Source of the DNA: a virus
Length of the DNA: 64,000 bases
Direction: 5' to 3' (one strand)
Virus record (IMG/VR): IMGVR_UViG_3300021378_000004
Numbering within the stretch: position 1 is the stretch's first letter; every line of letters begins with the position of its first letter. Of the stretch, positions 13,208 to 38,253 are shown piece after piece. The notes below the pieces were generated by a model. The model ran no database searches, had not been told where the DNA came from, and saw only the letters and a program-made list of their open reading frames with translations. The position numbers were made by a program, and so were the translations under genes.

Positions 13208-13813
13208 ATGATTAATTTTAAAACATATTTAGAAGAGGCTGCCGGAAAAGGTTTAACTATATTTGACATAGATGAAACTATGTTTATAACTAAAGCAAAG
13301 GTACATGTGGTAAAAAATGGTAAAGTTATTAAAAAACTGGATAATCAAGAATTTAACACATATAAGAAAAAAGCTGGCGAAGATTACGACTTCGGCGAAT
13401 TTAAAAACGCCGAGGTATTTAAGCGGACGTCCACGCCAATCGCAAGAATGATTAACAAAGTTAGAGCAATATTAAAAAATGCTACAAGAGCAGGATCTAA
13501 AGTTATTATTGTAACTGCAAGACCAAACTTTGACAACAAGAAAACATTTCTAGATACATTTAGAAAACAAGGAATCGACATAGACAAGATCTATGTTGAA
13601 CGTGCTGGTAACCTCGGAGGAGGCCCGGCCGCTGATAATAAGAAAGTAATCTTTAAGAAATACCTGGATCAAAAAATATATAAAAGAATAAGATTATTTG
13701 ATGATGCCATGTCTAACTTAAAGATGTTCTTATCATTACAAAAAGACTACCCCGATGTCTCATTCGAGGCATTCTTAGCAAAAGAAAATGGCTCTGTTTC
13801 AAGAGTAAGATAA
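13208..13813 (+). CDS. HAD-family phosphatase (polynucleotide phosphatase-like) with a capsid-targeting-like N-terminus
   Basis: FDIDET (motif I), VTAR (II), K (III), LFDD (IV); N-terminus MINFKTYLEE. Confidence 0.75.
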   Translation: MINFKTYLEEAAGKGLTIFDIDETMFITKAKVHVVKNGKVIKKLDNQEFNTYKKKAGEDYDFGEFKNAEVFKRTSTPIARMINKVRAILKNATRAGSKVIIVTARPNFDNKKTFLDTFRKQGIDIDKIYVERAGNLGGGPAADNKKVIFKKYLDQKIYKRIRLFDDAMSNLKMFLSLQKDYPDVSFEAFLAKENGSVSRVR

Positions 13814-13826
13814 TATAGGAGAAACT

Positions 13827-14846
13827 ATGAAATTCTTTAAGCACGCGGCAGTGCTAATGCTGTCGTTTCTATTCTGCTTTTCAGCTTTCGCAGATAAATT
13901 GAAAGTTGGGTTCGTGTATATTGGACCTGTGGGTGACCACGGCTGGACATATATGCATGATCAAGGGCGCCAGGCTATTGAAAAAGCTTATGGCGATAAA
14001 GTTGAAGTTACATATATGGAAAGTGTTAAATATGGTCCAGATGCTGAAAGAGCTATAAGAGGTTTAGCTAACGAAGGTATGGACATTATATTTGCTACTT
14101 CATTTGGTTACATGGAGCCAATGTTGAAAGTTGCTAAAGAGTTTCCAAACATTAAATTTGAACACGCTACCGGCTACAAGACTAATGATAACATGTCAGT
14201 TTATTCTGGAATGTTTTATCAAGGTAGATATGTTCAAGGTGTAATTGCAGGTCATATGAGTAAAAATGGTAAAGCTGGCTACATTGCTTCTTTTCCAATA
14301 CCTGAAGTTGTAAGAGGCATTAACGCTTTTTACCTAGGTGCAACAAGTGTTAATCCGGATTTCGACATCGACGTAGTATGGGTTAATAGTTGGTATGATC
14401 CGGTTAAAGAAGGTAATGCTGCAAAAGTATTAATCAGTGAAGGAGCTGACATTATTACGCAACATACCGATAGTCCTGCCGCATTGCAGGTTGCTGAAAA
14501 GCAAGGTGTCTTTGCATTTGGACAAGCAAGTAACATGTATCAGTTTGCGCCTAAAGCACAGCTTACCGCTATACTTGATGACTGGGCTCCTTACTATATT
14601 GAGAGAGTAGGTCAAGTAATGAATGGTACTTGGAAGAAATCAGATACTTGGGGTGATATGAAGAGTGGAATGGTTAAGATGGCACCATATACTAATATGC
14701 CAGATAATATTGCACTAATTGCTAAGGATATCGAAAATAAAGTTATGAACGGTGATATTAAACCATTTAATGGTAAATATTCTGTTGGAGAACTATTAGG
14801 CATGAATAAATATGTTAAAGGGATAGATGCGTCATTACCAAAATGA
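13827..14846 (+). CDS. BMP-family ABC transporter substrate-binding protein (purine/nucleoside)
   Basis: Signal peptide; VGFVYIGPVGDHGWTY, FATSFGY, PIPEVVRGINAF, WYDP, QHTDS. Confidence 0.9.
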   Translation: MKFFKHAAVLMLSFLFCFSAFADKLKVGFVYIGPVGDHGWTYMHDQGRQAIEKAYGDKVEVTYMESVKYGPDAERAIRGLANEGMDIIFATSFGYMEPMLKVAKEFPNIKFEHATGYKTNDNMSVYSGMFYQGRYVQGVIAGHMSKNGKAGYIASFPIPEVVRGINAFYLGATSVNPDFDIDVVWVNSWYDPVKEGNAAKVLISEGADIITQHTDSPAALQVAEKQGVFAFGQASNMYQFAPKAQLTAILDDWAPYYIERVGQVMNGTWKKSDTWGDMKSGMVKMAPYTNMPDNIALIAKDIENKVMNGDIKPFNGKYSVGELLGMNKYVKGIDASLPK

Positions 14847-15419: not shown

Positions 15420-18148
15420 TGGCATTTTATACCAACCTTTATCGATTCAAAAGTAACATATACTATCGCGGTTATTCATCTAACGGCGATAGAGTTACTA
15501 AAAAAGATCATTATGAACCAAAGTTCTATGTTACTACACCAGACGAAACTGGTTACAAAAGTATTGATGGTCATAATGTTGGATCAATAAATTTTAAAAG
15601 TATGTATGAAGCTGGACAATGGTTACGTGATAACCTCGAAGTTTCAGGTAGAAAAATTTATGGTAATAAAAGATATATTTCTCAGTATGTAATGGATAAA
15701 TTTCCAAATGATATTGAATTTGATCGTAGAGCAATTAACGTTGGTACATTTGATATTGAAACAGATTATGATGATGGCTTTCCACATCCTGATCAAGCTG
15801 CTCATAAAATATTATCGATATCATATAAGTCTAGTAAATTTTCAACATATCATGTGTGGGGTTATGGTGACTTTGATACTGAAACAGCACTTATAAGTGA
15901 TGTTAAATATACTAAATGTAATAGCGAAGAAGAACTACTTGAAAAGTTTATAGAATTCTGGTCACATCCAGAAATTACACCTGACGTCATTACAGGTTGG
16001 AATACAAGATTCTTCGATATACCTTACGTAATCAAACGTACATCAGATGTACTAGGTATAGAATACTTACACAAGTTTTCACCATATGGTTTACAAATAC
16101 CAGAACCTAGAAAGGTTATGTATCGCGGCAGAGAAAATCTAGTTTATGAAATTCCTGGTATTCAAACTTTAGACTACATGGAATTATTTCAAAAGTTTGG
16201 TTACACTTATGGTCCACAAGAATCATATGCATTGAATCATATTGCTTATGTTGTACTCGGTGAAAAGAAACTTTCATATGAAGAATCAGGTTCACTTAAA
16301 AATCTTTATAAAGATGATTATCAAAAGTACATCGATTATAATATGAAAGACGTACAACTTGTTGATAGGCTCGAAGAAAAACTTGGACTTATTACGTTGG
16401 CTATAACTATGGCCTACAAAGGTGGTGTTAATTTTCAAGACACATTTGGTGTAACTGCTATATGGGAATCAATTATTTTCAGAAAGCTTTATCAAAACAA
16501 AGTAATTACTCCTCTTACTCAAAAATATGATGATTATCAAATCATAGGTGCTACCGAAACATCAAAGAAAAATCCATCGCCTGCTTTTCGTGCAGAAGGT
16601 AAATCGCATAATATTGCTGGTGGTTATGTTAAAGATCCTGTCCCAGGTAAATACGAATGGGTAGTATCATTTGATTTAAATTCACTATATCCTAATATCA
16701 TTGTGCAAAATAATATGTCACCAGAAACAATAGTCGAATATCCAAAACAACCTGAAGAACTTGCAAGAGCTGCAAATGAAACATATTATCGTAAAGACTT
16801 TCAAGGTGTACTTCCAAAAATTATTGAAGAATATTATGATGAACGTGTGTCTGTTAAAAATATGATGTTAGCTGCTAAATCTGAAATGCAAAAAGGTTAT
16901 ACATTTGAATTAGATAAAGAAATAAACAATCTAGAAAACAGACAAATGGCTATTAAAATTCTACTTAATAGTTTATATGGTGCTCTTGCTAATAAACACT
17001 TTCTATATTTCAGACCATCACTTGCTGAAGGTGTAACACTTACTGGTCAAAAAGCAATTAAACATGCTCAAACAACAATGAATATTCAATTAAATGATGT
17101 ACTTAATATAAATTGGCGTAAAACTTCACTACCAGCTGTTTTAGATGAAAATTTTCATAAAAAAGGTATAGAATGGATAACTAATGAAAAACGTCACATA
17201 GAAATTCTTAACGATCCTGAACACAATTTACATTATGATAAAGAAAAAGAAATGTATTATACTAAACATTTTGAAAAAAAACCAGGATTTCAGATTTATA
17301 TGCCACTTGAAATATATATGACAGACTATGTTATCGCAATTGATACCGATTCTTTATACGTCAACTTTGGACCATTGGTAGAGAAATTTGCACCAAATAA
17401 TCCAGTTTTATTCTTAGACCAAATTTGTAAAGATCACTTCGAACCAGCAATTGCTAAAGCTTATAATGAATTCTTTAAAATGCACAATGCATATAAAAAC
17501 AGAATGGTTATGGCAAGAGAAGCAATATCAGATGTTGGTATATGGACTGCAAAGAAAAGATATATACTTAATGTACACAATAATGAAGGTGTACAATATG
17601 CTGAACCTAAACTTAAGATTATGGGTATTGAAGCTATCAAGTCTTCTACACCAGAAATTGTACGTAATAAATTTAAAGAAGCATTTAAGCTTATAATATC
17701 TGGTACTGAAAAAGAAACACAAGCTTTCATTGCAAAATTTAAAGCTGAATTTAAAAGTTTAAATCCAGAAGCTGTAGCTTTTCCACGTGGTGTTAGTAAT
17801 ATAACAGATTGGCATGATAGAAAAACTATATTTAAGAAAAGCTGTCCAATACATGTGCGTGGTTCATTACTACACAATTATTATCTTAAACAAAATAAAC
17901 TTAATAACAAATATGAACTTATTCAAAATGGCGATAGAATTAAATTTGTATATTTAAAACTACCAAACTCTATAAAACAAAATATAGTATCATTTAAAGA
18001 TGTATTGCCTAAAGAATTAAAACTACATAATTATATTAACTATGATTTACAATTCGAGAAAACATTTATCGAACCACTAAATCTAATACTTAACCCAATC
18101 GGCTGGTCAGCCGAAGAACAAGCAACACTGGAGGATTTTTTCGTATGA
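15419..18148 (+). CDS. gp43: Family B DNA polymerase gp43, with a ~70-aa insertion before motif C
   Basis: Exonuclease DIETD and GWNTRFFD; SFDLNSLYP (A), KILLNSLYG (B), IDTDS (C), KKRY; C-terminal clamp motif LEDFF. Confidence 0.98.
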   Translation: MAFYTNLYRFKSNIYYRGYSSNGDRVTKKDHYEPKFYVTTPDETGYKSIDGHNVGSINFKSMYEAGQWLRDNLEVSGRKIYGNKRYISQYVMDKFPNDIEFDRRAINVGTFDIETDYDDGFPHPDQAAHKILSISYKSSKFSTYHVWGYGDFDTETALISDVKYTKCNSEEELLEKFIEFWSHPEITPDVITGWNTRFFDIPYVIKRTSDVLGIEYLHKFSPYGLQIPEPRKVMYRGRENLVYEIPGIQTLDYMELFQKFGYTYGPQESYALNHIAYVVLGEKKLSYEESGSLKNLYKDDYQKYIDYNMKDVQLVDRLEEKLGLITLAITMAYKGGVNFQDTFGVTAIWESIIFRKLYQNKVITPLTQKYDDYQIIGATETSKKNPSPAFRAEGKSHNIAGGYVKDPVPGKYEWVVSFDLNSLYPNIIVQNNMSPETIVEYPKQPEELARAANETYYRKDFQGVLPKIIEEYYDERVSVKNMMLAAKSEMQKGYTFELDKEINNLENRQMAIKILLNSLYGALANKHFLYFRPSLAEGVTLTGQKAIKHAQTTMNIQLNDVLNINWRKTSLPAVLDENFHKKGIEWITNEKRHIEILNDPEHNLHYDKEKEMYYTKHFEKKPGFQIYMPLEIYMTDYVIAIDTDSLYVNFGPLVEKFAPNNPVLFLDQICKDHFEPAIAKAYNEFFKMHNAYKNRMVMAREAISDVGIWTAKKRYILNVHNNEGVQYAEPKLKIMGIEAIKSSTPEIVRNKFKEAFKLIISGTEKETQAFIAKFKAEFKSLNPEAVAFPRGVSNITDWHDRKTIFKKSCPIHVRGSLLHNYYLKQNKLNNKYELIQNGDRIKFVYLKLPNSIKQNIVSFKDVLPKELKLHNYINYDLQFEKTFIEPLNLILNPIGWSAEEQATLEDFFV

Positions 18149-18561
18149 GTACGAACTGGTTTAAAGACATGCAAGCCATGCATAAGAAATATGGCGTAGA
18201 TGAATGGATGAAAAAAGAAAAAGTATCTGATTGGTCTAGACTTAATAAGTTTATGGATTTTAGAATTAAGATGATGCAAGAAGAACTTGATGAAACTAAA
18301 ACAGCATTTAAAAAAGGAGATGCTGAAGAAGTTGTAGATGGCATTATAGACATGTGTGTCTTTGCTATCGGTACATTAGAAGTATTTGGCGTTGATGCTA
18401 ATAAAGCTTGGGACCAAGTATTAAAAGCGAATATGTCAAAAGAAGTTGGCATTAAAGAAGGCAGACCTAATCCTCTTGGTTTACCAGATTTGGTAAAGCC
18501 TGAAGGTTGGGAAGGTCCTACACATAAGGGAAATCATGGAAATATCACTGACTCTTTTTAA
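18145..18561 (+). CDS. All-alpha NTP pyrophosphohydrolase (MazG/PRA-PH-like), candidate dCTPase
   Basis: EELDE...EEVVDGIID acidic motif; ANMSK, DLVKPEGW. Confidence 0.8.
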   Translation: MSTNWFKDMQAMHKKYGVDEWMKKEKVSDWSRLNKFMDFRIKMMQEELDETKTAFKKGDAEEVVDGIIDMCVFAIGTLEVFGVDANKAWDQVLKANMSKEVGIKEGRPNPLGLPDLVKPEGWEGPTHKGNHGNITDSF

Positions 18562-20356: not shown

Positions 20357-20598
20357 TGGCTAAAGAGATGATTGAAGATGTTGTAAGATTTGATAACATT
20401 ATATATGTTGGCGACTTAGTAGAAACCAAGTATGGCGCTTGTAGAATTAAAAAGATAGAGTTAATGCCTGAAAAAAGACATTTCTCTAAGTGTGGAATAA
20501 ATGTAAATAAAATGTTTACATCCATGATAGATCAGTGTATAATAGATCTAGATAACAGACATTTTGTATATGGAGATGAAATTGAAAGAATCGGTTAG
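20356..20598 (+). CDS. Hypothetical protein
   Basis: TAATG translational coupling to the upstream gene. Confidence 0.6.
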   Translation: MAKEMIEDVVRFDNIIYVGDLVETKYGACRIKKIELMPEKRHFSKCGINVNKMFTSMIDQCIIDLDNRHFVYGDEIERIG

Positions 20599-20905
20599 AG
20601 TATTAAATGAATGTGTTGCATTACAGAATAAAAAGTCTGATGACTATCAGAATAAAGATTCGAATGTAACTCAAGCAATGCATTATCGTCGTGGTGTTGA
20701 TAGCATACACGATATAATTCAAGGTAAATGCTATCGTGCACAATCTATATTAGAAAGTCAAGGTGATCCAAACTTTGAATCACTCGAAGATACTTACAAA
20801 GATATAATTAATTATTGTTCATTTGCAGTATCTTATATGCGTGGTAAGATGGACGGCCAAAAAATGGATAGAGATATGTACAATAAGTTAAAAGGTAAAA
20901 TATAA
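20576..20905 (+). CDS. Nucleotide-modification-associated all-alpha protein (DUF1599/Nmad1-like)
   Basis: KKSDDY...K..R....NFESLEDTYKDIINY pattern; directly upstream of the dCMP hydroxymethylase. Confidence 0.65.
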   Translation: MKLKESVRVLNECVALQNKKSDDYQNKDSNVTQAMHYRRGVDSIHDIIQGKCYRAQSILESQGDPNFESLEDTYKDIINYCSFAVSYMRGKMDGQKMDRDMYNKLKGKI

Positions 20906-21594
20906 TGATTAGTTATGATATGATAAAAACTGATGATATACGATCTTACTTCTATACTGAACTAAGACAAGAAAATTTTATTACTGATAAAAATGGCGGT
21001 AAACTAATTGAAATGCTTGGTGCATGTTTTATTGCAGATAAACCATCTATATTTGGTACACCTAAAGAAGATTATATTAAAAGAGAAATTGCTTGGTATA
21101 GCAGTCAAATTGGTAATGTGAATGCAATAGAAGGTGATACACCTGAAGCATGGAAATTAGCTGCTAATGATTATGGTCAAGTCAATTCAAACTATGGTCA
21201 ACTTATTTGGTCTGATAAATACTTCAACCAATACGGTAGAACATTAGATGAATTGCTACAAACCCCAGATGGCCGTAGAGCCACTATGGTTTATAACAGA
21301 CCAAGCATATGGGAGGAATACAATGAAGAAGGTAAAAGTGATTTCATATGCACTAATGCCGTTACTTATTATATACGTAATGATAAGTTATTCGCCGTTG
21401 TTCAAATGCGCTCAAACGATGTCGTGTTCGGATACAAGAATGACTATGCTTGGCAGCTTTATGTTCTAGAATTATTGGTTGAAGACTACAATCAATGTAA
21501 GAACGAAAGTATAGAACCAATTTCATGTGGTGATATTATATGGCAAGTTCAAAATATGCATGTTTACGAAAGGCATTTTCATCTTGTCAAATAA
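20905..21594 (+). CDS. gp42: dCMP hydroxymethylase (thymidylate synthase fold, T4 gp42-like)
   Basis: REIAWY, NSNYG, SDFICTN (catalytic Cys), MRSNDVVFGYKNDYAW (Asp at the dCMP-specificity position as in T4 gp42), HVYERHF; a separate thyX is present. Confidence 0.88.
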   Translation: MISYDMIKTDDIRSYFYTELRQENFITDKNGGKLIEMLGACFIADKPSIFGTPKEDYIKREIAWYSSQIGNVNAIEGDTPEAWKLAANDYGQVNSNYGQLIWSDKYFNQYGRTLDELLQTPDGRRATMVYNRPSIWEEYNEEGKSDFICTNAVTYYIRNDKLFAVVQMRSNDVVFGYKNDYAWQLYVLELLVEDYNQCKNESIEPISCGDIIWQVQNMHVYERHFHLVK

Positions 21595-22021
21595 GTGGGA
21601 TAAAAGATTTTTAGAAATGGCAAAGCTTGTAGCTTCGTGGTCAAAAGATCCATCAACACAAGTTGGTTCAGTTGCTGTAAGAAATAGAACTGTTATAGCT
21701 CAAGGTTATAATGGTTTTCCTCGAGGCGTAGATGATCATGAATTATATTATTTAAACAGAGCAATAAAATACAAACGTATAGTTCATGCAGAAATGAATG
21801 CAATTTATAATGCAGCAGAAAATGGTGTATCATTAAAAGATTCTACAATATATGTGATAGGATTGCCAATATGCCATGATTGTGCAAAAGGCCTAATACA
21901 AGCTGGCATAAGTAGAGTTGTTACGCCAGAACAAGAAATACCAGAAAATTGGCAAGATTCAATAACAACTTCAATATCAATGTTTAAAGAAGCTGGTGTA
22001 ATATGGGATTGGATAAAATGA
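21584..22021 (+). CDS. cd: dCMP deaminase (probable TTG start)
   Basis: SKDPSTQVG, GYNGFPRG, HAEMNA, PICHDC. Confidence 0.93.
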   Translation: MSNKWDKRFLEMAKLVASWSKDPSTQVGSVAVRNRTVIAQGYNGFPRGVDDHELYYLNRAIKYKRIVHAEMNAIYNAAENGVSLKDSTIYVIGLPICHDCAKGLIQAGISRVVTPEQEIPENWQDSITTSISMFKEAGVIWDWIK

Positions 22022-22034
22022 AAAGGATAACATT

Positions 22035-23147
22035 ATGAAAATACTTGTAACAGGAATGAATAAAAATCAAGTCACAGAGAATTTTTATTTAAAACAACAA
22101 TTAAGAGTAGTGCCTTCACATTATTCTTTACTACGATGTTTAAGAGATATGGGTCATACTGTTGAACAAAGATTAGTGAAAATTGGAGAAGACTTATCTT
22201 CATATGATAGAGTTATTTGTTTCTTAGCTTCACCAAGACAAGCGTTACAACTTACATTTTATAATGGTTTATGGGCAATACACGATACTCCAAAAGATAA
22301 ATTAATATTGGCATTTGATGATTGGCAAACAGATGGAATATTCAAAGGCATTCTTTCATGTACTGATAAAGAATCGCTTTTAAAAGAATTTACTATAAAT
22401 CAAAGCACAACAGATCCAGATATTAGTAGAGAGTTATTAGAACCTCATACTGATGTTTTATTAGATGCAATAAAATACATTGGTGAAAAGAAATCACGTA
22501 TTTTACTTTCTGTATTTGCTGGTGGTGATATGACTAAACTTATTGAATACGATCCAAGTTTGTTATTTGGTTATAATCCAAATCCTTATCATAGAAATAG
22601 AGTACCAGGTAATAGAAGTGATATTCAAAAAAGCGAAATGAATTTCATGGAAGCACAACTTATACCAACTAAAGAAGAAGATGAAGTATCTTGGTTTAAC
22701 AAAGAAAAATGTTTTAACTTTGCTTCTTTAGTTCAAGGTAGAACTGCTAAATGGTTAAAGAAACAAAATATTAGTAAATGGAAAATAGAATATTTTGGTT
22801 CAAGAAAAGAAAAACAAAGACGCTTGTCTGAAGAAGACATGTGTAAAGTTTATGGAGAACAATGGGGTTGCTTAATGCCAGGGTATGAACATGCCGGATC
22901 TGGTTGGTGGAGAGCAAGACCTTTACAAGTTACTGATGCTGGTTCAATCTTGATTGGCGATTACAACGAACTTATAGTATTATTTGATAATGAAGAAGCA
23001 GCATCAGTAAAAGCTTCTGATCTTGAAGAATTATCAGACTACCAACTAATACAGCTAGCCGCACTACAAAAAAGCTCGATATATACTAAACATCCTTTAA
23101 ATAAAGAAACACAACAGAATGAATTAAAGAAAGCTTTAAACATATGA
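22035..23147 (+). CDS. DNA glycosyltransferase, T4 beta-glucosyltransferase-like (GT-B)
   Basis: N-terminus MKILVTGM..VVPS...LRDMGHTV...DLSSYDRVI resembles, from memory, T4 BGT (MKIAIINMG..TVPS...SEMGLNV...DVNDYDRLI); sits in the hmC cluster. Confidence 0.7.
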   Translation: MKILVTGMNKNQVTENFYLKQQLRVVPSHYSLLRCLRDMGHTVEQRLVKIGEDLSSYDRVICFLASPRQALQLTFYNGLWAIHDTPKDKLILAFDDWQTDGIFKGILSCTDKESLLKEFTINQSTTDPDISRELLEPHTDVLLDAIKYIGEKKSRILLSVFAGGDMTKLIEYDPSLLFGYNPNPYHRNRVPGNRSDIQKSEMNFMEAQLIPTKEEDEVSWFNKEKCFNFASLVQGRTAKWLKKQNISKWKIEYFGSRKEKQRRLSEEDMCKVYGEQWGCLMPGYEHAGSGWWRARPLQVTDAGSILIGDYNELIVLFDNEEAASVKASDLEELSDYQLIQLAALQKSSIYTKHPLNKETQQNELKKALNI

Positions 23148-24154
23148 AAATATTAGTAGTAGGTGCAGGTTTCTCTGGTGCAGTAGTTGCACACAAATTA
23201 GCAAACGCTGGCCATGATATACACGTCATAGATGAAAGAAACCACATTGGTGGTAATGCTTATGACTATACAAATAAAAGAGGAATACGAATTCATAAGT
23301 ATGGTCCTCATTTATTTCATACAAACAACGAAAAAGTTTATAACTGGGTTACACAATTTGGCGAATGGGAACCATACAAACATAAAGTCAAAGCACAGCT
23401 TGACGATGGTAGGTATGTAACATTACCAGTTAACAAAGAAACACAAGATATAGTAGGTAAAGAAAATATTGTAAGTACTTTCTTTGCACCATACACATAT
23501 AAAATGTGGGGTAAAACTATAGAAGAATTAGATCCATCTATTCTTAAAAGAGTACCAGTACGTGATGACGATAACGAATATTACTTTCCTAATGACGAAT
23601 ATCAAGTATTGCCAAAAAATGGTTACACCGCGGTATTTGAAGAAATACTAGATCATAAAAATATTAAAGTAGATTTATCAGTAAGATTTAGTAGAAGTAT
23701 GGAAAAAGATTTTGATCATATTTTTAATGCTATGCCAATAGATGATTACTTTAATTATTCTTATGGTGCCTTGCCATATCGCTCAATTAAGTTTCATCAT
23801 GTTGACATACCTATGACAAAAGTATTACCGACTGGTACAGTTAATTTTACACATGATGGTCCTTATACTCGAGTCACTGAATGGAAGAATCTACCGTGTC
23901 ATGGTATAAATAATCAATACACAACACTCACATACGAAGAACCTTGTGATTACCTAGTCAACAATCAAGAAAGATATTATCCAGTAAAAGATGTTGATGG
24001 TAACAACCGAATTAAATACGAACAATATAAAAAACTAATTCGTTCAAATATGACGTTTATAGGTCGTTGTGGAATGTATGTCTACGTAGATATGCATCAA
24101 GCAATTAATTCAGCACTAGCTATATCTGATAAATTTATGGAGAAAAATACATGA
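23144..24154 (+). CDS. glf: UDP-galactopyranose mutase
   Basis: VVGAGFSG, HIGGNAYD, HKYGPHLFHT, YTYKMWG, LPYRS, TRVTEWK, YYPV, GRCGMY. Confidence 0.93.
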   Translation: MKILVVGAGFSGAVVAHKLANAGHDIHVIDERNHIGGNAYDYTNKRGIRIHKYGPHLFHTNNEKVYNWVTQFGEWEPYKHKVKAQLDDGRYVTLPVNKETQDIVGKENIVSTFFAPYTYKMWGKTIEELDPSILKRVPVRDDDNEYYFPNDEYQVLPKNGYTAVFEEILDHKNIKVDLSVRFSRSMEKDFDHIFNAMPIDDYFNYSYGALPYRSIKFHHVDIPMTKVLPTGTVNFTHDGPYTRVTEWKNLPCHGINNQYTTLTYEEPCDYLVNNQERYYPVKDVDGNNRIKYEQYKKLIRSNMTFIGRCGMYVYVDMHQAINSALAISDKFMEKNT

Positions 24155-24900
24155 AAGTAGCAATCACAGGATCAAGAGGTTTCATTGGAAGTCACCTTAA
24201 AACAAGACTTGAATCAGAAGGACATGAAGTTGTTGAATGGGATTTAAAACAAAATCCAGCTAAATGCATAAAAGATTTTACTCCTGATGAAATTAACTAT
24301 TGTATACACCTTGCAGCATACGCTGATGTGAGAGCAAGTATAGAAGATCCTCAAAAATATTGGAGAAATAATGTAGAGAATACTACAAGAATACAATTAA
24401 TTTGTCATCATAATAATATACCATTACTATATGCATCTTCATCATGTATTCATAATTGGTGGTTATCACCATATGGCGTAAGTAAAAAAGTAAATGAAGA
24501 AACAGCTTATGAAAAACAAGTTGGATTAAGATTTACTACAGTTTATGGTGATGGCGCTAGAGAGTCAATGCTTATCGGTAAACTCATTGATGGTACAGTT
24601 CAGTATCTCACGAGACACGTAAGAGACTTTGTACATGTTAGTGATGTTGTAGATGCAATACTTATTCTTATGAGTAAAGATATCGGTATGTTAAAACCTG
24701 CTTATGATATCGGTACTGGTGAAGGAAACGTTGTAGAAGAACTTGGTATCATTGCTGGTTGGGAAGGTATCGAAGTACGAGATGGCGATGCTTGTGAAGC
24801 ACAAGATAATACTGCAGATATAACAGAGATGAAAGCATTAGGGTGGAATCCTAAAGTTAAAGTAGATGAATATCTTATTACTAATACAGTACCTCACTAA
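24151..24900 (+). CDS. NAD-dependent epimerase/dehydratase (extended SDR)
   Basis: ITGSRGFIG, HLAA, YASSS, PYGVSK, LRFTTVYG, RDFVHV. Confidence 0.9.
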   Translation: MKVAITGSRGFIGSHLKTRLESEGHEVVEWDLKQNPAKCIKDFTPDEINYCIHLAAYADVRASIEDPQKYWRNNVENTTRIQLICHHNNIPLLYASSSCIHNWWLSPYGVSKKVNEETAYEKQVGLRFTTVYGDGARESMLIGKLIDGTVQYLTRHVRDFVHVSDVVDAILILMSKDIGMLKPAYDIGTGEGNVVEELGIIAGWEGIEVRDGDACEAQDNTADITEMKALGWNPKVKVDEYLITNTVPH

Positions 24901-26099
24901 TGAGATTCGCCAGTATAATACCACTTATAGGTGGAGCAACACTTGCAATGCAAAATGTTTTGCAAAGAAAGCCAGAGTATTTATTAAGTTATGATGTTTT
25001 TAAAGAAAATGATAATCACTTGGTACAATATTATAAAGGAGCAGTTCCCTATCATCTTTATGGAGACAATGGGGTTCCTAACTTACCTAATGTTGAGGTT
25101 ATTAATACTGTATGCCCATGTGCTGGTCTTAGCAGTCTTAGTCCTTCAGCTAGTAGCGATGCTGCTGCTAACGATTGGATGCTTACCTCTGCTAATCTTG
25201 TCTTGGGTACACTCAAACCTCACGTATTCTGGGGAGAAAACGCACCAGGACTTGCTTCGAACATCGGAAAACCAGTTGTTGCAAAACTTAGAAAAGTTGC
25301 AGAAAAGTTTGGGTACACTTTCTCAATATATAAAACGAAGTCTATCCTTCATGGATTAGGTCAAGTAAGAAACAGAACTTTCTATTTCTTTTGGAAAGGT
25401 GATAAGGTACCTAAGTTTGAATTTATAAAAAGAGAACATGAGAAAATTGATGAGACTATTAGATCAATAAAAAGAAGATCTGACGATCCAATGAATATTC
25501 TTACTAATAAAACAACGCCTTCAGACAATCCATTTTATAAGTACGTTCTAGAAGAAATGTGTGGTGGAATTGGTCATAAAGAATTTGTTGAAAAGAAAAT
25601 AACAAGATCTCAAAACGCAATGGATTACATCGAATGGAACGGTGGAAACTATAAAAGCGTATCAAAATGGATGGATGCTCAAGGATTTGATAAACTTGCT
25701 GAAAGATGTAGAAAAATACATAGTAAGTTAGCTCAAGGCGGAAACATTATGAGAAAGCTTGTGCATTTTCCAAAAGAAACTATTGGTGCATTTGTTGGCC
25801 ATATGCCAAATCAACTTACACATCCAGATGAAGATAGATTTCTGACTGTAAGAGAATGTATGTCAATAATGAAATTACCTGAAGACTTTACGTTACAAGG
25901 TGGACTAAAGAATTTAAATCATATATGCCAAAACGTGCCTGTTACTACAGCCGAAGATATGGCTGAGCATGTACAAAAGTTTGTAGACGGTAGATTAGGA
26001 AATCAAATGCTAGATACAAATTTTTTAATTCAAGATAACACAAATAAAAAGTTAAATTTTGAAAAAAACAGTGTACAATTAGATGCTTTTATGGTATAA
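24900..26099 (+). CDS. C5-cytosine DNA methyltransferase-like protein with atypical motif I
   Basis: Motif IV CPCAGLS, VI GENA, VIII QVRNRTF, IX RFLTVREC, X QNVPV; motif I reads IPLIGG instead of FxGxGG. Confidence 0.75.
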   Translation: MRFASIIPLIGGATLAMQNVLQRKPEYLLSYDVFKENDNHLVQYYKGAVPYHLYGDNGVPNLPNVEVINTVCPCAGLSSLSPSASSDAAANDWMLTSANLVLGTLKPHVFWGENAPGLASNIGKPVVAKLRKVAEKFGYTFSIYKTKSILHGLGQVRNRTFYFFWKGDKVPKFEFIKREHEKIDETIRSIKRRSDDPMNILTNKTTPSDNPFYKYVLEEMCGGIGHKEFVEKKITRSQNAMDYIEWNGGNYKSVSKWMDAQGFDKLAERCRKIHSKLAQGGNIMRKLVHFPKETIGAFVGHMPNQLTHPDEDRFLTVRECMSIMKLPEDFTLQGGLKNLNHICQNVPVTTAEDMAEHVQKFVDGRLGNQMLDTNFLIQDNTNKKLNFEKNSVQLDAFMV

Positions 26100-26126: not shown

Positions 26127-27167
26127 ATGTCGATAATGGATAAACTTAAGAAGAATAGTAAAGTTGATTTTACTTCAATACTTGCTGATTCTAAATTTTT
26201 TAATGATAAAGACATGGTGCCAACTGACGTACCAATGATTAACGTAGCTTTGTCTGGCTCAGTAGATGGTGGTTTAGCACCAGGACTTACAGTACTTGCA
26301 GGTCCATCTAAACATTTTAAAACTTCATTTGCACTTATTATGGCTGCAGCATATTTAAAAAAATATGATGATGCTGTATTATTGTTTTATGATTCAGAGT
26401 TTGGTTCACCTCAAGCATACTTTGAAAATTATGGTATTGATACAACAAGAGTATTGCATACACCTATTACTAATGTTGAGGAACTTAAATTTGATATTAT
26501 AGCACAACTTGAAGGTTTAGATAGAAACGATAAAGTTGTAATAGTTATTGATTCAGTTGGTAACCTAGCATCTAAAAAAGAATTAGATGATGCTATTAAC
26601 GAAAAATCAGTTGCAGATATGTCAAGAGCAAAAGCACTTAAAGGTTTATTTAGAATGACTACACCATATCTAAATATGAAAAACATACCATTAATTGCAG
26701 TTAACCACACTTATCAAGAGATAGGATTATTTCCAAAAGCTGTAGTTTCTGGTGGTACTGGTATTTACTATAGTGCCGATAATATATGGATCCTTGGCCG
26801 TCAACAAGACAAACAAGGTACTGAAATTAAAGGTTACCATTTTGTAATCAATGTGGAGAAATCAAGATATGTTAAAGAAAAGTCTAAAATACCTATTTCT
26901 GTTAGTTGGGACGGTGGTGTCCAGCATTGGAGTGGCTTGCTTGACGCTGCTTTGTCTGGTAATTATGTTTCTAAGCCCAGTGTTGGTTGGTACTGTAGGG
27001 TTGATAAAACTACTGGAGAATTGGTGGATCCAAAGGTTCGAGAAAAAGACACACTAAGTGCAGACTTTTGGAAACCTATTATGGAAGATACTGATTTTAA
27101 ACAATACTTAACAAATAAGTATTCAATTGTAAATAAATCTGCAATGATAGACAAAGAAGTTGAATAA
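26127..27167 (+). CDS. uvsX: RecA-like recombinase UvsX
   Basis: AGPSKHFKT, YDSEFG, IDSVGNLASKKE, SGGTG. Confidence 0.97.
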   Translation: MSIMDKLKKNSKVDFTSILADSKFFNDKDMVPTDVPMINVALSGSVDGGLAPGLTVLAGPSKHFKTSFALIMAAAYLKKYDDAVLLFYDSEFGSPQAYFENYGIDTTRVLHTPITNVEELKFDIIAQLEGLDRNDKVVIVIDSVGNLASKKELDDAINEKSVADMSRAKALKGLFRMTTPYLNMKNIPLIAVNHTYQEIGLFPKAVVSGGTGIYYSADNIWILGRQQDKQGTEIKGYHFVINVEKSRYVKEKSKIPISVSWDGGVQHWSGLLDAALSGNYVSKPSVGWYCRVDKTTGELVDPKVREKDTLSADFWKPIMEDTDFKQYLTNKYSIVNKSAMIDKEVE

Positions 27168-27501
27168 AATGAAACTAAATATTAATGATATTGGCGGTGA
27201 AATCGTAAAAGACAATGATACGTATCTTCTTAAAGATAACACAACTTTAAAAAATCTAGTACTAAGTAGTACTAGATTACATCCATTAAAATCCACAACT
27301 GGTCATAAGCATGATGGCCAAGAAGAAGTATACTTTTTTGTTGATGGCATTGGTAAGATGTATCTAAATGATGTACCGCAAGATATTGCTGCAGGCGACA
27401 TCGTGTTAATTGAAGATGGCATACATCATAGAGTATTAAATACTCACCGAAAAAAACCATTAATCTTTAATTGTATATTTCAAGGAAAAAGGAATCACTA
27501 A
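27160..27501 (+). CDS. Cupin domain protein
   Basis: GHKHDGQEEVYFF...GDIVLIEDGIHHRV. Confidence 0.85.
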   Translation: MNKMKLNINDIGGEIVKDNDTYLLKDNTTLKNLVLSSTRLHPLKSTTGHKHDGQEEVYFFVDGIGKMYLNDVPQDIAAGDIVLIEDGIHHRVLNTHRKKPLIFNCIFQGKRNH

Positions 27502-36565: not shown

Positions 36566-37168
36566 ATGATGGCAACTCACACAAATAAAGACTCTCGCAA
36601 TTTAATGCACGTAATAAAACCTAATACTGTTGGTGCAGAAATTGGTGTTTGGTTTGGTAATACATCAACACAATTTTTAAAAAAAGGTTTAAAAAAACTA
36701 TACATGGTTGATCCGTATTCTGTTGAACCATATAAAGAAAACTCAGAAATGACGTATCAAGAATATCTTGCAAAATATCAACCAATTACTGGAGAATTTG
36801 CAGAAGTAGGTTTTCAAAAATATTATGATAAAGTTTATGCAGAAATTAATTCAAGATTTAGAACATACAAAGAAGTTGAAATCTGCCGTATGTTGTCTGG
36901 CGAATGGTTTAAAAAATATAGTGACGTTGAGTTAGACTGGATCTATATTGATGGCGATCATTCATACGAAGGATGCTTAAGTGATTTAGAAAATGCATTA
37001 AAAGCAGTAAAAGCAGGCGGTCTTATATTAGGTGATGATTATGGTTGGCCTAATAATAAATGGAATAAACCAGGTGTAACAAAAGCAGTTAACGAATTTA
37101 TAAATACCAATAACTTAACTAATAGCATGTTTAGACATGGTGAAACACAATTTGAGATAAGAATATGA
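36566..37168 (+). CDS. Class I SAM methyltransferase (Methyltransf_24-like)
   Basis: GAEIGVWFG, VDPY, DWIYIDGDHSYE, GDDY. Confidence 0.88.
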   Translation: MMATHTNKDSRNLMHVIKPNTVGAEIGVWFGNTSTQFLKKGLKKLYMVDPYSVEPYKENSEMTYQEYLAKYQPITGEFAEVGFQKYYDKVYAEINSRFRTYKEVEICRMLSGEWFKKYSDVELDWIYIDGDHSYEGCLSDLENALKAVKAGGLILGDDYGWPNNKWNKPGVTKAVNEFINTNNLTNSMFRHGETQFEIRI

Positions 37169-38253
37169 AAAAATATACAGTTACTTATGAAGTAGATGGT
37201 CCAGATATTGCAAAAATAGCACATGAAATTGCTATTGGGCAAAGTATAGGAAATCCAAATATTAGATCTGAAATAGAAAACGCAACAAATGTAAAAGATT
37301 ATATAGCGCAAGTTAAAAGCATAGATAAAAATATCGTTGTTATAGAATTCCCTTTAGGTGCATTTGATTGGCCAAATATTAATCAATTGATGTGCATCAT
37401 TATGGGTGGTCATACTGATATTTTAGGTGTTGATAGATGTAGAGTAATAGACATAGACATACCAATTAAAACAATTGAACCACTTTTAGGTATGAGCGGA
37501 TGGAAAAAAAGATTAAATGCAGAAAATAGACCATTATTTGGCGCTATTGTTAAGCCTAAGTCTGGTCTTAATAAAGAACAGTTGTTATCTTTAGTTAAAG
37601 ATATGATGTATGGCGGAGCAGATTTTATTAAAGAAGATGAGATCATGGCAAATAACTCTTATTTACCTCTGCAAGAAAGAATTGATGCTATTGAACATCT
37701 TAAAACAATATCTGGTTGGAAAGGTTTTTACGCTTATTGTATTAACGCTGATCCTTTAGAGTTAGTAGACAACTGTGCAGCAGTAAAAATGGCTACAAGT
37801 AGTGAAGGAACTGTTGGCGGTGTGCATATTAACTTTTGGTCTGGACTTGGTGCATATACAACTGCTAGAAAATACTGGATTGCAACACACTACCAAAGAT
37901 CTGGCATACGCATTTTGACTGATCCAAGTAATAAATATTCTTTATCATGGCCAGTTTTAGTAAAATTAGGCTGCATGGCGGGGATTGATAGTATGCATGT
38001 TGGCATGCTAGGTGGATATTATCCAGAAGGTGAAAGCGAAACAGAAACACTTGAAGCAATAAAGATTTGTAATGAGTATAATGTTATTCCTTCGTTAAGT
38101 TGTGGTATGAATCCAGTACTTGCAAGAGAAATTAAAGAACGCATAGGTAACGATTGGATGGGATCAGTTGGCGGTTGGTTACACACTGGTGATGGTACAA
38201 CTGGTAATACTTTGTACCATAAAGTAAAACAAATGAGTGAGGCAATGTTATAA
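37165..38253 (+). CDS. RuBisCO-like protein (form IV)
   Basis: IAIGQSIG, RPLFGAIVKPKSGL, GGADFIKEDE (carbamylation motif), HYQRSG, AGIDSMHVG, SCGM, VGGW. Confidence 0.88.
   Translation: MKKYTVTYEVDGPDIAKIAHEIAIGQSIGNPNIRSEIENATNVKDYIAQVKSIDKNIVVIEFPLGAFDWPNINQLMCIIMGGHTDILGVDRCRVIDIDIPIKTIEPLLGMSGWKKRLNAENRPLFGAIVKPKSGLNKEQLLSLVKDMMYGGADFIKEDEIMANNSYLPLQERIDAIEHLKTISGWKGFYAYCINADPLELVDNCAAVKMATSSEGTVGGVHINFWSGLGAYTTARKYWIATHYQRSGIRILTDPSNKYSLSWPVLVKLGCMAGIDSMHVGMLGGYYPEGESETETLEAIKICNEYNVIPSLSCGMNPVLAREIKERIGNDWMGSVGGWLHTGDGTTGNTLYHKVKQMSEAML

Follow-up and report, generated by a model that had tools for sequence, protein, structure and literature searches.

A large family of phage proteins retains the residues for the base-flipping, covalent chemistry of DNA cytosine-C5 methyltransferases (C5-MTases) without the canonical contacts to the cofactor S-adenosylmethionine (SAM), and its genes travel with genes for making 5-hydroxymethylcytosine (hmC) and for glycosylating it. 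We describe the family from a member encoded in a 64,000-nucleotide stretch of viral DNA (IMG/VR record IMGVR_UViG_3300021378_000004; hereafter the window), in which an open reading frame (ORF) at 24900–26099 on the plus strand encodes a 399-amino-acid MTase-like protein of what we call the 'PLxGG / QNVP' phage clade. The protein has the C5-MTase fold and an intact set of catalytic residues, its SAM contacts are replaced family-wide, and its gene is coupled to gp42-type and DNA glycosyltransferase genes. Judging from these sequence features, the enzyme probably does something other than ordinary methylation. We see about an even chance that it is a Cys-dependent enzyme that acts on (hydroxymethyl)cytosine in DNA, free of SAM or with another cofactor, as an accessory of the hmC module; a narrower version, in which cofactor-free chemistry is directed at hmC, is put forward only tentatively.

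On the predicted structure, the assignment of the protein to the two-domain C5-cytosine-methyltransferase fold is secure. The Pfam model DNA_methylase (PF00145) matches residues 1–359 with an E value of 9.7e-19, and the NCBI dcm model scores the protein at 34.6 bits, far below its cut-off of 100.65. An AlphaFold2 (AF2) model built from an alignment of 117 sequences has a mean predicted local distance difference test (pLDDT) score of 96.1 and superposes (VIA-align) at Z scores of 23–24 on 3g7u, M.MpeI, M.HhaI, CmoX and M.HaeIII (3g7u, 8c56, 10mh, 8yf3 and 3ubt, respectively). The superposition starts at residue 1 and covers 280–296 residues within residues 1–368, small domain included, at 13–21% identity; DNMT2-type tRNA enzymes match the model at a Z score of 19. 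Homologues fall into 2449 clusters at 90% identity, and the 242 clusters at 50% identity with E below 1e-30 are without exception listed as viral in the ESM Atlas; the IPLIGG motif marks a large phage-only clade. Given the Pfam match, the 2449 homologous clusters and the confidence of the model, the motif observation is not due to chance. A literature search found no published description of the family. The motifs of the window protein are laid out as follows.

24915–24935 (+): motif I variant IIPLIGG, residues 6–12; the canonical form is FxGxGG
24981–25013 (+): LLSYDVFKEND, strand beta2 plus helix B, which corresponds to canonical motif II but lacks the acid that binds the ribose
25113–25133 (+): motif IV, CPCAGLS, residues 72–78, with the catalytic Cys74
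25236–25247 (+): motif VI, ENAP, residues 113–116, with Glu113; the canonical form is ENV
25362–25376 (+): motif VIII, QVRNR, residues 155–159, with Arg157 and Arg159
25836–25889 (+): motif IX, RFLTVRECMSIMKLPEDF, residues 313–330, which aligns to motif IX of HaeIII, HhaI and CmoX
25926–25940 (+): motif X variant CQNVP, residues 343–347; the canonical form is GN

We counted conservation over 124 diverse family representatives that are 30–53% identical to the window protein. The catalytic residues are near-invariant: C74 is present in 123/124, E113, R157 and R159 in all 124, N114 in 122 and Q155 in 120, and the alanines that follow the catalytic motifs are almost as constant (A75 in 106, A115 in 118). 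The departures from the canonical pattern are conserved too, both in motif I (P8 in 121/124, L9 in 120, G11 in 122, G12 in 119) and in motif X (Q344 in 121, N345 in 118), where Gln344 aligns with Asn304 of M.HhaI and Arg350 of CmoX (GN in HaeIII and HhaI, GR in CmoX). The motif II region has acquired conserved positions of its own (S30, an aromatic residue at 31, F34, N37 and D/E38), R313, E319 and P327 of motif IX are each at least 90% conserved, and the stretch between motifs VIII and IX is conserved family-wide rather than hypervariable. Among the longer family members, the fusion partners are just zf-CXXC and a weak C2H2 match, which say nothing about function.

Some members depart from this pattern. 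Lys replaces Gln344 in two outliers, P0127 (L084, 2160–3356; TKSVP), whose motif I reads VPGIGG, and P0242 (L229, 5590–6903; TKGVV), a substitution that recalls the carboxy-SAM (Cx-SAM)-using M.MpeI variant N374K. P0242 adjoins a Fer4_12 gene and P0192 is the sole gene on its contig, both uninformative contexts; for one distant representative, we sought relatives in IMG/VR and found none. One locus (L106, 10001–12434; IMGVR_UViG_3300035698_010625) encodes two MTase-like paralogues in tandem, the first of which (P0166) has lost PC and reads EAA for ENA and ENII for QNVP, with the second intact. The pair recalls the arrangement of a catalytic and a degenerate subunit in DNMT3A/3L.

For comparison, 30 canonical C5-MTases from 201 Pseudomonadota genomes were aligned jointly (L-INS-i) with the family and a CmoX orthologue. 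FxGxGG, the acid at the end of beta2, PCQ and ENV are found in 30/30 of the canonical enzymes, as is the GN of motif X by alignment (29/30 by pattern scan), and solved eukaryotic and phage C5-MTases behave like this set in profile searches. In the family, all of the canonical SAM-contact positions (F18, G20, E40, W41, D60, G303 and N304 in M.HhaI numbering) are replaced, as are two residues beside C5; the register of the motif II and III columns comes from the alignment and not from superposed structures.

M.HhaI F18: canonical F in 30/30; family V or I (I7 in the window protein)
M.HhaI G20: canonical G in 30/30; family L (L9 in the window protein)
M.HhaI E40 (motif II): canonical E or D in 30/30; family unconserved, S, D, P or K (residue 32 of the window protein)
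M.HhaI W41: canonical W, I or Y; family A, G or P
M.HhaI D60 (motif III): canonical D in 26/30; family L, V or I
M.HhaI G303-N304 (motif X): canonical GN in 30/30; family C, A or S followed by Q
M.HhaI Q82 (PCQ to PCA): canonical Q in 30/30; family A
M.HhaI V121 (ENV to ENA): canonical V in 30/30; family A

Except at the position of E40, the replacement residues are themselves conserved across the family. In CmoX and M.HhaI, the equivalents of F18, E40, W41 and N304 contact the adenine, the ribose and the transferred group (PMC12783734). Overall, the residues of the family have gained bulk where the cofactor would lie (Leu9, Gln344) and have shrunk around C5 (PCA, ENA). In profile searches, the alignment of the family with each solved C5-MTase begins only at motif III/IV, and the N-terminal 40–60 residues, which hold the motif I–II region, have no profile alignment to any of them. 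A reading in which S30-Y31 would be the canonical E-W pair and D55 the motif III Asp, so that the adenine site is kept, was rejected because it is out of register in the L-INS-i alignment.

The initial annotation of this DNA had quoted IIPLIGG, CPCAGLS, ENA, QxRxR and motif IX where we find them, and its picture of an intact catalytic machinery with a non-canonical SAM site holds over the 124 representatives and against the 30 canonical enzymes. It had also counted motifs IX and X as kept, which is right for motif IX; in motif X, GN has become CQ. The deviation that it reported in motif I is real and is accompanied by others that it did not list, namely the loss of the motif II acid and of the motif III Asp, PCA and ENA. 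Its description of motif I as degenerate has to be given up: P8, L9, G11, G12 and Q344, each present in 119–122 of the 124 representatives, form a conserved signature. The annotation had named a variant common in canonical MTases as grounds for refutation; the variant occurs in 0/30 of them, all of which carry FxGxGG, so that this check does not refute its reading.

The gene stands, as the initial annotation had also proposed, inside an hmC locus, in which a thymidylate synthase (TS)-like partner and, between the two, a protein resembling T4 beta-glucosyltransferase (BGT), a mutase and an epimerase precede it.

18145–18561 (+): MazG-like nucleoside triphosphate pyrophosphohydrolase (PF01503, E 1e-9), a candidate dCTPase
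20564–20905 (+): DUF1599, nucleotide modification associated domain 1 (PF07659, E 6.9e-7)
20905–21594 (+): gp42-type dCMP hydroxymethylase (TS-like), 50% identical to T4 gp42 over its full length
21527–22021 (+): dCMP deaminase (PF00383, E 3.7e-22)
22035–23147 (+): GT-B glycosyltransferase of 370 amino acids, most like T4 BGT
23144–24154 (+): UDP-galactopyranose mutase (PF03275, E 5.9e-52)
24151–24900 (+): short NAD-dependent nucleotide-sugar epimerase (PF01370, E 4.3e-26)

All of the locus genes upstream of the MTase-like gene lie on the same strand, and UvsX lies downstream. The start codon of the MTase-like gene shares one base with the stop codon of the epimerase gene (TAATG). The TS-like protein retains Cys148 and Asp179, the latter being the dCMP-specifying residue that is Asn in dUMP enzymes, and both are invariant in the alignment; its product is presumably hydroxymethyl-dCMP. 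Its identity to the homologues in phiC120 and SHSML-52-1, which we take to be RB69-type phages, is only about 28%. The 370-residue GT-B protein had no match in Pfam or in a sequence search of the Protein Data Bank (PDB); its AF2 model (pLDDT 89.6) has the T4 BGT structures 1nzd, 1qkj and 1j39 as its best Foldseek matches (E 6e-7). On the strength of the gp42-like TS homologue and this BGT-like protein, the gene content of the locus predicts T4-like DNA with glycosylated hmC. The window itself is part of the genome of a marine T4-like myovirus, with genes for gp23, UvsW, gp45, gp44, a family B DNA polymerase, UvsX, the gp41 helicase, RNase H and ThyX, and when its locus was compared by megablast with a set of 50,697 phage records nothing matched, so that no close sequenced relative is present among them.

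We then surveyed 147 loci, the MTase-like proteins of which were sorted into 15 lineages with less than 60% identity between them. In 11 of the 15, clustering places a TS homologue 1.7–6.4 kb upstream on the same strand; L084 adds a twelfth, in which the TS homologue is divergent and 21% identical to gp42. In a thirteenth (L131), the sole TS homologue lies elsewhere on a 172-kb contig; the contigs of the last two lineages measure 2.7 kb and 24 kb. Counted by locus, a TS homologue is present in 57 of the 71 family loci of at least 10 kb, and nearly all of the exceptions have a truncated upstream flank. By contrast, control loci that carry CmoX in similar phages, essentially one lineage, have a TS homologue in 0 of 80, including 0 of the 22 that reach at least 10 kb. 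Position 179, which specifies dCMP, is Asp in the TS homologues of S-TIM5, XG4 and L084 alike.

Other neighbours recur around this pair, including dCMP deaminase (eight lineages), DUF1599 (eight lineages), MazG (five lineages) and nucleotide-sugar enzymes. The MTase-like gene usually adjoins genes for DNA glycosyltransferases: directly upstream of it lies a TAGT-type glycosyltransferase in six lineages (PF20691; phrog_842 'beta-glucosyl-HMC-alpha-glucosyltransferase', E 1.5e-38), a 414-residue glycosyltransferase in four and a glycosyltransferase like the T4 alpha enzyme (PF11440) in three; one lineage has a module with the helical domain of 5-hydroxymethyluracil DNA kinase (HMUDK). Four kinds of enzymes or modules that modify hydroxymethyl-pyrimidine DNA thus adjoin the family: BGT-like, T4 alpha-glucosyltransferase-like, TAGT-like and HMUDK-linked. 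The constant pair is the dCMP-modifying TS homologue and the MTase-like gene, and the decorating enzymes vary.

Three of these loci hold further details. The S-TIM5 gene annotated 'thymidylate synthase' (F417_gp076; L001, 5757–6593) is the sole TS-family gene of the complete S-TIM5 genome; it scores 179 bits to Pfam Thymidylat_synt, yet has Asp where dUMP-specific enzymes have Asn, so that its substrate may be dCMP. In L003 (5441–11188), the nearest of the other lineages at 53% identity, the MTase-like gene is preceded by genes for a myo-inositol-1-phosphate synthase, a 5-hydroxymethyluracil DNA kinase-like protein (PF18723), an FkbM-type methyltransferase and a 343-residue protein. One profile of 795 positions, phrog_17781, unites the 343-residue protein with the kinase, and the neighbourhood suggests hypermodification based on phosphorylation instead of glycosylation. 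In three lineages (L083, 6202–6651, and relatives), a neighbour of 125–150 residues has a weak match to the uracil-DNA glycosylase (UDG) superfamily (E 0.002, below any threshold).

Two partner enzymes that might have been expected from other phage systems were looked for in the same DNA. A tblastn search for CmoA gave no match in the 64-kb window, which is part of a phage genome, nor in any of five related records, and found the positive control, phage RN05-S, with an E value of 3.5e-34. Tet_JBP was found in none of the five related records, which include the complete S-TIM5 genome, in a search that had no match in any control genome either, and there was none among the recurrent neighbour clusters.

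We propose that the MTase-like enzyme would flip a cytosine-type base out of replicated phage DNA, with Cys74 attacking C6, Glu113 engaging N3/N4, and Arg157 and Arg159 engaging O2 and the phosphate. From the alignment, the former methionine, ribose and adenine sites would be occupied by Leu9, the aromatic residue 31, an aliphatic residue 53 and Gln344, and the shrunken residues that flank C5 (PCQ to PCA and ENV to ENA) would face a base that is already substituted. The 5-CH2-OH group of hmC would be activated through an exocyclic-methylene intermediate and the substituent exchanged, captured or removed, with no methyl group delivered, and the enzyme would serve as a dedicated accessory of the pre-replicative 5-hydroxymethyl-dC pathway. 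That the Cys, the Glu and both Arg residues are invariant speaks for covalent catalysis, at C6 of a cytosine-type base that has been flipped out, rather than mere binding. Ordinary methyl transfer is hard to square with replacements that are conserved at all of the SAM contacts, and the residue sizes, taken with the strict coupling to an enzyme that fills C5 ahead of replication, point to a C5-substituted cytosine as the target. From these arguments we infer that the substrate is DNA, that the target base is hmC and that SAM is not used.

Work by Liutkeviciute et al. in 2009 and 2011 (with Klimasauskas) reportedly showed that SAM-free C5-MTases add and remove formaldehyde at C5 in vitro and couple nucleophiles to hmC. 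To our knowledge, this repertoire is the only chemistry that fits a Cys/Glu/Arg machinery acting on a C5-substituted cytosine. The family could conceivably hold the first natural, dedicated SAM-independent enzyme with the C5-MTase fold, one that activates the 5-hydroxymethyl group of hmC through a Cys–C6 adduct for exchange, removal or editing, although we consider this doubtful in so specific a form. Within the broader proposal of a Cys-dependent enzyme that is SAM-free or uses another cofactor, the cofactor-free action on hmC remains a tentative choice, it is unlikely that a cofactor other than SAM donates a non-methyl group to residual C, and what is left goes to other variants.

Several points weigh against this proposal. 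G11 and G12, with the newly conserved polar residues S30, N37, D/E38 and H40, may still hold a ligand, and the notion of a filled pocket comes from an alignment rather than a measured cavity. The canonical set consists of the best 30 Pfam scorers from one phylum and is hence biased towards the consensus. The full replacement of C by hmC in the phage of the window is extrapolated from T4, and T4 handles hmC DNA without such an enzyme. Nor does any generic, evidently useful reaction of hmC account for the retention of the gene alongside any glycosyltransferase.

Of the rival explanations, a SAM-dependent C5-MTase of low specificity fares best; it would bind SAM in an unusual way, methylate residual dC and so close gaps in the protection against restriction. 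The initial annotation had already offered the methylation of residual C as its fallback; we regard it as possible and no better than tentative. The full C5-MTase fold with a complete catalytic set is what such an enzyme would need, the G11-G12 glycine loop is retained, and the conserved motif VIII–IX region fits one common, simple target. A mop-up role would moreover explain in a biologically tidy way why the link to the TS-like gene is constant under any glycosyltransferase, and every characterised phage C5-MTase-like enzyme is cofactor-dependent (PMC12783734, PMC8256090). However, seven SAM-contact positions that are 87–100% conserved in the 30 canonical enzymes, and present in CmoX, are all replaced, and the lost acid at the end of beta2 is near-universal in Rossmann-fold methyltransferases. 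The absence of a profile alignment to solved C5-MTases over the N-terminal 40–60 residues also counts against it.

A second explanation is that the protein is a weapon against the host, which would strike unsubstituted C, present in host DNA only, with a Cys–C6 adduct that, for want of a cofactor, would either lead to C-to-U deamination or form a tight or covalent roadblock, the phage being immune because its C5 is occupied. C5-MTases starved of SAM deaminate their target cytosine, and such a role would explain the restriction of the gene to phages with a TS homologue that modifies C5 of dCMP. The UDG-like small neighbour in three lineages would suit it too, but that match is below any threshold. 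The smaller residues of PCA and ENA beside C5 suggest space for a substituted base instead, and the translational coupling is to sugar-nucleotide and glycosyltransferase genes rather than to nucleases. We judge the weapon unlikely.

The third explanation, that the enzyme takes a group other than methyl from a SAM analogue as CmoX does, starts from the best sequence match among solved structures. CmoX (8YF3, E 3e-7) is the DNA cytosine C5-carboxymethyltransferase of Synechococcus phage S-B43 and is defined by an SPPC motif and by Arg350, which contacts the carboxymethyl group (PMC12783734). Both systems have the C5-MTase fold in marine phages, a changed cofactor site and a substitution at the position of HhaI N304, and both sit in the UvsX/gp41 neighbourhood of T4-like phages. 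The residue that governs cofactor choice in CmoX (R350; HhaI N304) is altered in the family as well, to Gln, and two members have a Lys there that recalls the engineered M.MpeI N374K (PMC12783734). Against this, the canonical adenosyl contacts F, G, E and F persist in CmoX (F25, the G-loop, E47 and F48) but are all gone from the family, and the hallmarks of CmoX, SPPC and R350, are absent from the window protein, which has VCPC and Gln344. CmoX pairs with CmoA and a ligase, whereas the partners of the family are gp42-type TS homologues and DNA glycosyltransferases, and the window and five related records lack CmoA in a search with a working positive control. The family thus has a rebuilt cofactor site as CmoX does, but one that is further removed and has another genomic partner; CmoX-like transfer is very unlikely.

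Least probable of all is that the protein binds or reads hmC DNA without catalysis, for example as a shield against modification-dependent restriction, or that it acts on RNA or free nucleotides, for although the tandem paralogue P0166 shows that the scaffold can persist without PC, EN and catalysis, and DNMT2-type tRNA enzymes share the fold, the near-invariance of the Cys, the Glu and both Arg residues in the 124 representatives points to selection for catalysis, and the model superposes on DNA enzymes, small domain included.

The favoured reading, a Cys-dependent accessory of the hmC module, can be set beside three further bodies of work. With M.HhaI, M.HaeIII and M.MpeI (PF00145), the family shares the fold and motifs IV (PC), VI (EN), VIII (QxRxR) and IX. 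It differs from these canonical enzymes in having (V/I)PLxGG, xQ, PCA and ENA and in lacking the motif II acid and the motif III Asp, and the gene sits in a genome predicted to carry cytosine in which C5 is already substituted. Phage clusters of a C5-MTase, a TET enzyme (5mYOX) and glycosyltransferases (PMC8256090; bioRxiv 10.1101/2023.12.21.572611) resemble the loci described here in that an MTase-fold gene adjoins TAGT-type or GT-B DNA glycosyltransferases that act on 5hmC. In those clusters, however, hmC arises post-replicatively, by SAM-dependent methylation and then TET oxidation, whereas the window locus would make it before replication, with a gp42 homologue, and the family's MTase-like protein is without SAM motifs.

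The SAM-free reactions of C5-MTases in vitro, reportedly aldehyde addition, dehydroxymethylation and the coupling of thiols or selenols to hmC in the hands of Liutkeviciute, Klimasauskas and others, are test-tube side reactions of SAM-dependent enzymes. We know of no natural enzyme that is dedicated to such chemistry.

The hypermodification of phage DNA has yielded both anti-restriction biology and tools, such as T4 BGT and TET/APOBEC sequencing of 5-methylcytosine (5mC) and 5hmC. Should the family act on hmC, a chemistry so far seen only as a side reaction in vitro would be used in nature, opening a new enzymatic route to DNA hypermodification, one widespread among marine T4-like phages that are themselves abundant, and possibly providing a sequence-directed reagent for the derivatization of 5hmC. 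Should it be a SAM-dependent mop-up methylase, the view of the SAM site in the C5-MTase fold would have to be revised, and hmC replacement in marine phages would be incomplete. The question is directly testable because orthologues in which the motifs are the same occur in two cultured isolates, cyanophage S-TIM5 (F417_gp080) and Pseudoalteromonas phage vB_Psh_XG4.

The window holds some additional genes of note. A small cupin (27160–27501, +; PF07883, E 1.4e-10) is encoded directly after UvsX; several relatives also have it close to their modification locus, and it could isomerize or epimerize sugar nucleotides. An ORF at 37165–38253 (+; 362 amino acids) has RuBisCO large-chain domains (PF00016, E 5e-24; PF02788, E 3e-5), and thus represents a RuBisCO-like protein in a T4-like phage. 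Finally, the ORF at 13827–14846 (+; 339 amino acids) encodes a Bmp/PnrA-like ABC nucleoside-binding protein (PF02608, E 4e-56), an unusual auxiliary gene for a phage, and is adjoined by an ORF for a HAD-type phosphatase-like protein (13208–13813).

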